A stretch of DNA of 64,000 nucleotides. Source: Escherichia coli (GTDB taxonomy: Bacteria; Pseudomonadota; Gammaproteobacteria; Enterobacterales; Enterobacteriaceae). The stretch is taken from NCBI RefSeq assembly GCF_017348835.2, contig NZ_CP071375.1. One strand, given 5' to 3'. A program made the translations under genes and the position numbers. Position 1 is the stretch's first letter, and each line of letters starts with the position of its first letter. The notes beneath the pieces are model-generated. The model did no database searches, was not told the origin of the DNA, and saw only the letters and a program-made list of their open reading frames with translations. Of the stretch, positions 52,335-52,410 are shown piece by piece.

Positions 52335-52410
52335 CTCCCTCTCCCTGTGGGAGAGGGCCGGGGTGAGGGCATCAGCGCGTACGTTCACCCTCACCCTCAA
52401 GGGAGAGGGG
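52335..52410. repeat. GC-rich interlocking palindromic intergenic repeat (boxC-like)
   Basis: ccctctccc-tgt-gggagaggg, gggtgaggg...ccctcaccc, gggagaggg; between hrpB stop and mrcB start. Confidence 0.55.

Follow-up and report, generated by a model that had tools for sequence, protein, structure and literature searches.

The 64,000-nucleotide stretch of Escherichia coli DNA analysed here (contig NZ_CP071375.1, henceforth the window) carries between hrpB and mrcB a GC-rich palindromic element (~52330-52426) that is very probably one copy of the E. coli intergenic repeat BoxC, and taken as a whole this is the best explanation of the observations. The same repeat goes under the names PIT and TMECO. 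BoxC is reportedly named in Bergler 1992 and Bachellier 1999, and the PIT elements in Hoyne and Maher 2000 and 2002. Both the element and its exact locus are already published, only the deletion allele found in the window being uncommon, and the biology of hrpB and mrcB is left unchanged by the assignment to a textbook-level repeat at a catalogued locus. What is new concerns the repeat itself. At several loci public Term-seq data place RNA 3' ends at BoxC hairpins despite earlier negative terminator work, and BoxC units form the inverted ends of a module with a DUF559 gene in Enterobacteriaceae, in a betaproteobacterium and on many metagenome contigs.

On the plus strand, 52335-52410 reads tCCCTCTCCCtgtGGGAGAGGGccgGGGTGAGGGcatcagcgcgtacgttcaCCCTCACCCtcaaGGGAGAGGGg, and positions 52337-52409 resolve into the block order CCCTCTCCC tgt GGGAGAGGG ccg GGGTGAGGG catcagcgcgtacgttca CCCTCACCC tcaa GGGAGAGGG. 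A first-pass annotation, made from the sequence alone, had reported GC-rich palindromes here, and the arms are indeed present far above chance. GGGTGAGGG occurs four times in the 64 kb compared to 0.36 expected (none of 100 shuffles reached four), all copies being confined to the hrpB-mrcB spacer and a second site between ampE and aroP. GGGAGAGGG was found three times (0.21 expected), in the hrpB-mrcB spacer only, and the degenerate 9-mer GGGNGAGGG seven times (1.0 expected), again in the same two spacers only. The flanking genes hrpB, mrcB, ampE and aroP lie where that annotation had placed them; the ATG of mrcB is at 52508.

The BoxC/TMECO motif was defined as three blocks, CCCTCNCCC N3-6 GGGNGAGGG N3 GGGNGAGGG. 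Its only strict match in the 64 kb is the left-hand unit of the hrpB-mrcB element (Table 1), where none was expected. In K-12 MG1655 (164,535-164,729) the same sequence is found with 12 extra bases, and there the right-hand unit matches the motif as well; in the window it does not, owing to a 12-bp deletion. The K-12 form reads CCCTCTCCC tgt GGGAGAGGG ccg GGGTGAGGG, then 18 nt, then CCCTCACCC taa CCCTCTCCC tcaa GGGAGAGGG, and is thus a symmetric inverted pair with a type B unit on the plus and a type A unit on the minus strand. In its complete form BoxC is an inverted pair of two ~35-nt units, one of type B and one of type A, each with a C-rich arm, a pairing G-rich arm and a second G-rich block, the third blocks facing each other across the 18-nt spacer.

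Comparison with published coordinates places the K-12 hrpB-mrcB locus among the BoxC/TMECO entries. TMECO 1 is 164547-164580(+), type B, and TMECO 2 is 164631-164597(-), type A (Table 1 of PMC4666352); the same two hrpB/mrcB units are catalogued as the putative G-quadruplex motifs HPG1-6/HPG2-5 (Kaplan et al. 2016, PMC5100583). TMECO is stated to be identical to BoxC (Bergler 1992) and to the PIT elements of Hoyne and Maher (Holder et al. 2015, PMC4666352), and fabI (envM), the locus of the original box C description, carries TMECO unit no. 9. The window copy thus shares with BoxC/PIT/TMECO the sequence, the locus, the intergenic position, the inverted A+B pair and the variability among strains; it differs in being 12 bp short, with only one of its two units fitting the definition.

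When complete E. coli genomes were searched by blastn with a 96-nt query covering the element, the median genome had 9 matching places and the richest 23, and MG1655 holds 23 strict units according to the literature. At seven other K-12 loci the homology extends beyond the motif into flanks and spacers. Type B units share a gttttct 5' flank, seen also at alx-sstT, ilvC-ppiC, xynR-argF and lldD-trmL, and a 3' flank catcagcgcgcac, which begins the central spacer and recurs behind the solo type B unit of ilvC-ppiC. The flank common to type A units, ..gagc..cggtc, was recovered as GAC[CTG]G..[CT]GAGC at fepB-entC, ygfF-gcvP, alx-sstT, lldD-trmL and fabI-ycjD. Since these flanks outside the three blocks are common to other K-12 copies, the repeat spans ~52330-52426 and is wider than the 52335-52410 first assigned to it. 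Rfam gave no family for the element at gathering scores, and none at E<=1 when the 271-nt region was searched. The three-block match, the multi-copy genomes, the shared flanks and the catalogued locus bear out the suggestion of a dispersed repeat family. The description "boxC/RIP-like" is right in its first half and wrong in its second, because the REP head GCC(G/T)GATG(C/A)G, whose inverted copies characterise BIME and in RIP enclose an IHF site, is found neither in 52300-52450 nor in 7950-8010 and an RIP or BIME organisation was rejected.

Table 1. Features of the hrpB-mrcB element and of the ampE-aroP hairpin (window positions)
Feature	Position	Strand	Remark
hrpB stop codon TAA	52322-52324	+	TGA instead in element-free alleles, Salmonella and Citrobacter
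gttttct, outer flank common to type B BoxC units	52330-52336	+	belongs to the repeat, not to the host spacer
Complete three-block BoxC/TMECO unit, type B	52337-52369	+	identical to TMECO no. 1, Holder et al. Table 1
Type B unit, C-arm	52337-52345	+	followed by loop tgt
Type B unit, G-arm	52349-52357	+	followed by loop ccg
Type B unit, third block GGGTGAGGG	52361-52369	+	
Central spacer of the pair, catcagcgcgtacgttca	52370-52387	.	one T/C difference from K-12
Truncated type A unit	52388-52409	-	K-12 counterpart is TMECO no. 2
Type A remnant, CCCTCACCC	52388-52396	-	followed by tcaa
Type A remnant, GGGAGAGGG	52401-52409	-	
gaccgatcgagcacaaa, outer flank common to type A units	52410-52426	-	part of the repeat
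Equivalent of K-12 RNA 3' end 164636(+)	52414	+	K-12 Term-seq
Hairpin gCCCTCACCCtgtacGGGTGAGGGc between convergent ampE and aroP	7975-7999	-	10-bp, GC-rich, two blocks only
Equivalent of K-12 aroP 3' end 120140(-)	7971	-	Adams et al. Supplementary file 1

The 12 bases missing from the window (CCCTAA CCCTCT in K-12) were lost at ~52393/52394. They are two of four tandem CCCTNN hexamers, CCCTCA (CCCTAA CCCTCT) CCCTCA, and without them the type A unit lacks loop 2 and, in minus-strand terms, one G-block. The "interlocking" appearance of the arms is no property of design but a consequence of this loss in an originally symmetric inverted pair. Replication slippage within the (CCCTNN)4 run would have deleted the 12 bp, leaving the left unit intact and the right unit as a stump. 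With a 50-nt query across the deletion junction, full-length matches were obtained in 29 of 5,426 complete E. coli genomes: PE164 and F2_81 at 100%, and the O145:H28 lineage plus a few others at 98%. The window strain is an E. coli other than K-12: when 151 nt around the element are compared, 100% identity is reached only with PE164 and F2_81, both pig isolates.

Four allele classes were distinguished among aligned representatives. The full pair (K-12, O157:H7, O25) is the majority form, ~4,270 genomes covering at least 80% of the K-12 element. The second class is the 12-bp deletion of the window strain and the 29-record group. O111:H- 11128 carries a single hairpin, CCCTCTCCC tgt GGGAGAGGG, explained by a 64-bp deletion between GGGAGAGGG direct repeats. 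In the fourth class (UPEC_U013, O84:H7 and others) there is no element, the hrpB stop codon is TGA and the spacer measures 93 nt. About 1,390 genomes gave no megablast match to the element region, and the element is absent with hrpB and mrcB both intact in about 1,100-1,400 of the 5,426, that is, in a fifth to a quarter. As other strains have a collapsed single hairpin or nothing at all, the hrpB-mrcB element is dispensable in E. coli, and it is structurally unstable. TMECO loci in general vary in a similar manner, including a "palindrome effect" (Holder et al., PMC4666352).

Outgroup sequences were fetched via HrpB homologues. In Salmonella and Citrobacter, REP elements stand in the position of BoxC after the TGA stop codon of hrpB, a stop codon shared with the empty E. 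coli allele; the gene order around hrpB differs in Klebsiella. The REP palindromes follow the stop codon directly, at 2071-2125 of the Salmonella stretch (L131) and at 1000-1050 of the Citrobacter stretch (L132). The spot behind hrpB seems open to one kind of intergenic repeat or another, depending on the genus.

Transcribed from the plus strand, the window element is predicted to fold into one long nested hairpin (-48.6 to -54.4 kcal/mol, z -3.2 to -4.5). In the hrpB sense the K-12 element also forms a single long nested hairpin, of -68.4 kcal/mol (z -6.6) compared with -48.6 kcal/mol (z -3.2) for the window allele, the weaker fold being due to one arm that lacks its partner. In the Term-seq data for MG1655, whose coordinate convention was verified with sgrS, there is an RNA 3' end at 164636(+), 5 nt past the last GGGAGAGGG (Adams et al. 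2021, PMC7815308, Supplementary file 1, M63 sheet). The table of Adams et al. was then searched for the family 9-mers, and further 3' ends were found 3-11 nt past BoxC-type hairpins at K-12 positions 3781065(+), 3959467(-), 847200(-), 632098(+), 624567(-) and 4231270(-). Among these, 3781065(+) is classed as the primary end of lldD. Only 3-4 nt separate the ends at 847200(-), 3959467(-) and 4231270(-) from the stem that precedes them, and the first two of these ends fall inside loop 2, ahead of the third block. Ends this close to the stem fit exonuclease trimming back to a stable stem, and transcripts terminated by Rho are typically trimmed back by exonucleases to stable stems (Adams et al., PMC7815308). 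Folding and Term-seq had been suggested as checks by the first-pass annotation; at its two loci they gave a stable nested hairpin at hrpB-mrcB and a 10-bp stem at ampE-aroP, with K-12 3' ends just past the elements at 164636(+) and 120140(-).

Transcription of hrpB would copy the element into the 3' untranslated region, where it would fold into a very stable hairpin. Such a hairpin would stop 3'-to-5' exonucleases and thereby fix the 3' end of the mRNA a few bases downstream, as REP elements do. From the positions of the 3' ends, the most likely role of the element would be that of a 3'-end barrier to exonucleases, which suggests that BoxC has a REP-like function. The two families resemble each other in being short GC-rich intergenic palindromes in many copies, often just after stop codons, with RNA 3' ends just downstream, and REP occupies the same spot in Salmonella and Citrobacter. 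In sequence they are unrelated, BoxC having no GCC(G/T)GATG head. BoxC is present in ~20-30 copies per genome as opposed to several hundred for REP, and its associated gene encodes a DUF559 PD-(D/E)XK nuclease, where that of REP encodes the RAYT tyrosine transposase. The natural allele series (full pair, 12-bp deletion, single hairpin, empty) lets the barrier role be tested.

A scan of the genome collection returned at least 120 stretches with the strict motif, and among the matches listed only four genomes were represented: Mitsuaria chitosanitabida, a Methylomirabilota metagenome-assembled genome (MAG), a Contendobacter MAG and one unclassified MAG. The betaproteobacterium Mitsuaria chitosanitabida NBRC 102408 holds at least 145 strict units in the 912 kb examined, nearly all with the loop GCTTGC; neighbouring pairs there mostly have their third blocks outward. 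Two of its unit pairs enclose open reading frames that belong to DUF559 (Pfam, E 2e-39). Inverted end units around a nuclease gene were seen repeatedly, examples being the loci L150, L148, L149, L054 and L055, the last two from Mitsuaria. On the metagenome contig L150, strict inverted units stand on both sides with their third blocks toward the gene. Thus, BoxC units physically bracket DUF559 genes as inverted ends.

E. coli has such a gene as well. The DUF559 gene of K-12, ycjD, adjoins fabI (envM), where box C was first described, and its product is a predicted Vsr-like PD-(D/E)XK nuclease (PMC1189080). YcjD ends in ...NRRSPSP followed by the stop codon, a tail encoded by tCACCCTCTCCCTGA, after which a degenerate G-arm follows; TMECO 9 lies 168 nt downstream of ycjD on the same strand (K-12 1351000-1352100). 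Among the 120 closest YcjD homologues, from Enterobacter, Klebsiella, Kluyvera, Lelliottia, Leclercia, Phytobacter and others, 67 carry PSPxPSP within their last 45 residues, 59 of them as PSPRPSP, and none of 240 control proteins does. Reading the reverse complement of a type B unit in frame, CCC TCA CCC CGG CCC TCT CCC, yields PSPRPSP. In a more diverse set, such a tail directly follows the domain in 26 of 146 representatives, and a PHPNPLP..GEG tail among these corresponds to a type A unit read in another frame. At an Enterobacter and a Klebsiella locus a strict unit on the opposite strand covers the last eight codons. The neighbouring genes are different at each of the Enterobacter, Klebsiella, L150 and E. 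coli ycjD loci. Between the ycjD stop codon and unit no. 9, on the minus strand at ~1351290-1351400, there is in addition a partial duplicate of the 3' end of ycjD (ggagacggtgctggagaatattcgg..), which looks like a rearrangement scar at the original box C locus.

Metagenomes were scanned with patterns taken from the core of the DUF559 domain, yielding 80 loci. Strict hairpins were present at the 3' end of the gene in 43 of them, within 150 nt upstream in 38 and at both ends in 29. Hairpin density was 3.19 per kb near the gene ends compared to 0.063 per kb at more than 300 nt away, a difference of ~50-fold. The loci were ranked with a PSPRPSP-tailed query, which may favour 3' units, whereas such a bias cannot act on upstream units. 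Fifteen modules bracketed at both ends are 410-457 bp long. Within a module the two end units have their loop sequence, and often 4-7 nt of outer flank (..TTCT directly before CCCTC), in common; the similarity between the ends of one module exceeds that to the ends of others. The E. coli pairs are likewise arranged A(+)...B(-), and a spacer of 18-29 nt stands where the modules have the gene; they share the module flanks (agaaaac behind the B unit, gaacagg behind the A unit, and at type B units the same ..TTCT before CCCTC as in the gttttct flank), and their spacers resemble the 3' coding sequence of ycjD. No DUF559 open reading frame was found in the 64-kb window.

The hrpB-mrcB pair would, on these grounds, be a gene-less derivative of a ~420-bp module that brackets a DUF559 gene. 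We tentatively propose, from sequence comparisons, that BoxC pairs may be gene-less derivatives of the DUF559 module resembling MITEs or REPINs, with the nuclease as the putative cognate enzyme that recognises BoxC and spreads or maintains it. The arrangement recalls REPIN/RAYT systems and MITEs in several respects: inverted structured pairs occur alone or bracketing one small nuclease gene, and the module of gene plus ends is found in different genomic neighbourhoods across genera. It differs in that transposition, target-site duplication and catalysis are all putative for the DUF559 module, and it is peculiar in that the last 7-8 codons of the gene are encoded by the end unit. In the literature searched, no paper joining DUF559 or YcjD with BoxC was found, and the link is apparently undescribed. 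If the proposal holds, the 30-year-old orphan BoxC would gain a partner protein and the large DUF559 family a substrate; a nuclease acting on the ends would explain the origin and spread of BoxC and would assign a function to YcjD and its relatives.

Several points weigh against this account of the element. According to the passage of PMC4666352 that refers to it, Hoyne and Maher (2002) saw neither promoter nor terminator activity with these elements. The K-12 end at 164636 was called in one of three growth conditions with a modest read count, and Term-seq locates 3' ends, not their origin; the ends at 164636(+) and 120140(-) fit termination and exonuclease trimming equally. The RNA 3'-end data also come from the full pair of K-12, whereas the window carries the deletion allele. 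Moreover, the boundaries between filled and empty alleles are not clean, and these alleles differ by more than a clean insertion. The derivation of the pairs from DUF559 modules would follow from shared architecture and short flank similarities, not from observed transposition.

Among other explanations of the hrpB-mrcB element, the one that survives best places the effect at the level of DNA. An intrastrand purine triplex, or a switch between G-quadruplex (G4) and hairpin, would stall replication or affect mrcB transcription and would be kept by selection, either as a regulator or because it generates variation. The unit fits the triplex pattern exactly, synthetic oligonucleotides adopt both triplex and G4 in vitro, and variability is higher at TMECO loci than in control intergenic regions (PMC4666352, PMC5100583); all four alleles at hrpB-mrcB are explicable by slippage between repeated blocks. 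However, triplex was not seen by in vivo dimethyl sulfate footprinting or by circular dichroism and nuclear magnetic resonance of duplexes, and direct and inverted repeats alone explain the instability with no triplex needed. The element is also missing in many strains with the gene layout unchanged, and the commonest unit type has a mismatch in its hairpin. We consider a selectively kept non-B structure unlikely.

That the GC-rich hairpins are a gene-specific Rho-independent terminator of hrpB is less probable still. The position directly after the hrpB stop codon, the very stable RNA hairpin and the K-12 3' end 5 nt downstream would all agree with it, and a stable GC-rich stem-loop at a gene end with RNA 3' ends nearby is what such terminators have in common with BoxC. 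Yet no U-tract follows any of the hrpB-mrcB hairpins, a terminator scan found 0 terminator-like sites in 52200-52600, and the reporter tests cited above speak against terminator activity. BoxC 3' ends mostly lie 3-5 nt from the stem, while those of terminators lie 7-9 nt away inside the U run. The same sequence is found at ~18 unrelated loci in either orientation, and because a fifth to a quarter of the genomes lack it and keep both genes, it is not a gene-specific terminator. Of the roles first suggested for such elements, the marking or stabilising of mRNA 3' ends fits the Term-seq data. A binding site for a host protein, whether a regulator of mrcB or a nucleoid protein as on BIME or RIP, is suggested by the palindrome upstream of mrcB and is hardly credible in view of the missing REP head, the many strains without the element, the lack of a common functional class among genes beside the copies, and a conserved mrcB-proximal segment of ~80 nt (kept across E. 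coli, Salmonella and Citrobacter) that lies downstream of the element. Promoter scanning, which covered both spacers, gave nothing at hrpB-mrcB.

The second site, between ampE and aroP, proved to be different. It had been described as carrying the same unit, and the hairpin and its 9-mer arms are real, the layout being gCCCTCACCC tgtac GGGTGAGGGc, with CCCTCACCC-tgtac-GGGTGAGGG at 7976-7998. It lies in a 42-nt spacer (ampE stop codon 7964-7966; aroP, on the minus strand, ends at 8009). The arms are the BoxC third-block 9-mer and its complement, and only a two-block pattern is found, not the three-block one. The flanks, gattattg and cgtagaga, are unlike those of type A or B, and no length variation was seen at this site in 5,369 E. 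coli genomes. In an Escherichia-like contig (AmpE 93% identical) the stem is kept and the loop is tgcac in place of tgtac. In Salmonella and Citrobacter ampE has a different neighbouring gene and REP elements, which makes them uninformative as outgroups.

In the aroP sense the RNA is predicted to form a stem of 10 bp (-23.5 kcal/mol, z -7.2). For aroP on the minus strand the scan gave a single weak terminator-like site, whose AAUAAUCUUU tail (tail in the scan, AATAATCTTT) is weak by comparison with a Rho-independent terminator. A "primary" aroP 3' end is reported at K-12 120140(-), 4 nt past the stem, as is a Rho-dependent termination region at K-12 120597(+), antisense to aroP (both Adams et al. 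2021, PMC7815308). The latter corresponds to ~8428(+) in the window, ~450 nt beyond the hairpin in the ampE direction, which implies that transcripts in this direction read through the ampE-aroP hairpin. Since it coincides with the main 3' end of the aroP mRNA, the hairpin behaves as a conserved gene-specific 3'-end hairpin of aroP. The statement that such palindromes are not gene-specific terminators holds for hrpB-mrcB, where many genomes lack the element.

An old relationship of the ampE-aroP hairpin to BoxC is possible, because the exact arm match is unlikely by chance: by a rough estimate fewer than 0.1 such matches are expected among ~2,000 intergenic hairpins, the hairpin count being taken from the literature. 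A true degenerate BoxC member, a solo hairpin left by the collapse of a larger element, would also have a parallel in the O111 allele, where a pair did collapse in this way. We regard this as rather doubtful. The site has no third block, shares no type A or B flank and, unlike BoxC loci, shows no length polymorphism; a stem that is kept while the loop changes is what one expects of a selected RNA hairpin, and the same 9-mer also occurs in an unrelated repeat, an ERIC copy in the aceF-lpd spacer of K-12. The ampE-aroP site would thus be a separate, stable hairpin that happens to use the same 9-mer or anciently derives from it.

The ERIC copy is a ~145-nt ERIC/IRU-like insert (..CCCCAGGAGCTTACATAAGTAAGTGACTGGGGTGAGGGCG..) in the aceF-lpd spacer of K-12 (127560-127930). 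At the corresponding place of the window (15555-15605) there is a short sequence of ~30 nt and the insert is absent. The GGGGTGAGGG in the K-12 Term-seq row 127851 belongs to this copy and was rejected as BoxC. As the ERIC copy holds GGGGTGAGGG, the bare 9-mer is not specific to the family, and a search with the 9-mer would mix repeat families.

Outside the chromosomal loci of E. coli, the strict motif was found at least 13 times in 61 kb of the Methylomirabilota MAG, which lies outside Proteobacteria. BoxC-like sequence is present on 344 of 72,556 plasmid records, including those of Klebsiella, Enterobacter, Citrobacter, Aeromonas and Azospirillum, some of these records being chromosome-sized; phages carry essentially none (4 of 50,697 records). 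One K-12 unit lies within the annotated cryptic prophage CP4-6 (K-12 289150-289380). The plasmid and CP4-6 copies qualify a claim in the literature that denies the motif any association with mobile DNA.

Three further features of the window were recorded. An AT-rich inverted repeat, ttcttctgt-cttgta-acagaagaa, at 52441-52464, ~45 nt upstream of the mrcB ATG, lies within the conserved mrcB-proximal segment; all four E. coli allele classes have it, as do Salmonella and Citrobacter in altered form, and it likely belongs to the mrcB leader or promoter region, not to the BoxC repeat. The only Rfam match in the window is the tp2 small RNA family (RF02030) at 10732-10845(-), with 103 bits against a gathering score of 50. 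Finally, four REP heads of the form GCC(G/T)GATGCG were found, at 26413, 26501, 51523 and 58319 (26413-26510, 51523-51532, 58319-58328); the copy at 51523 is located within the coding region of hrpB, and the pair at 26413/26501 looks like a BIME.

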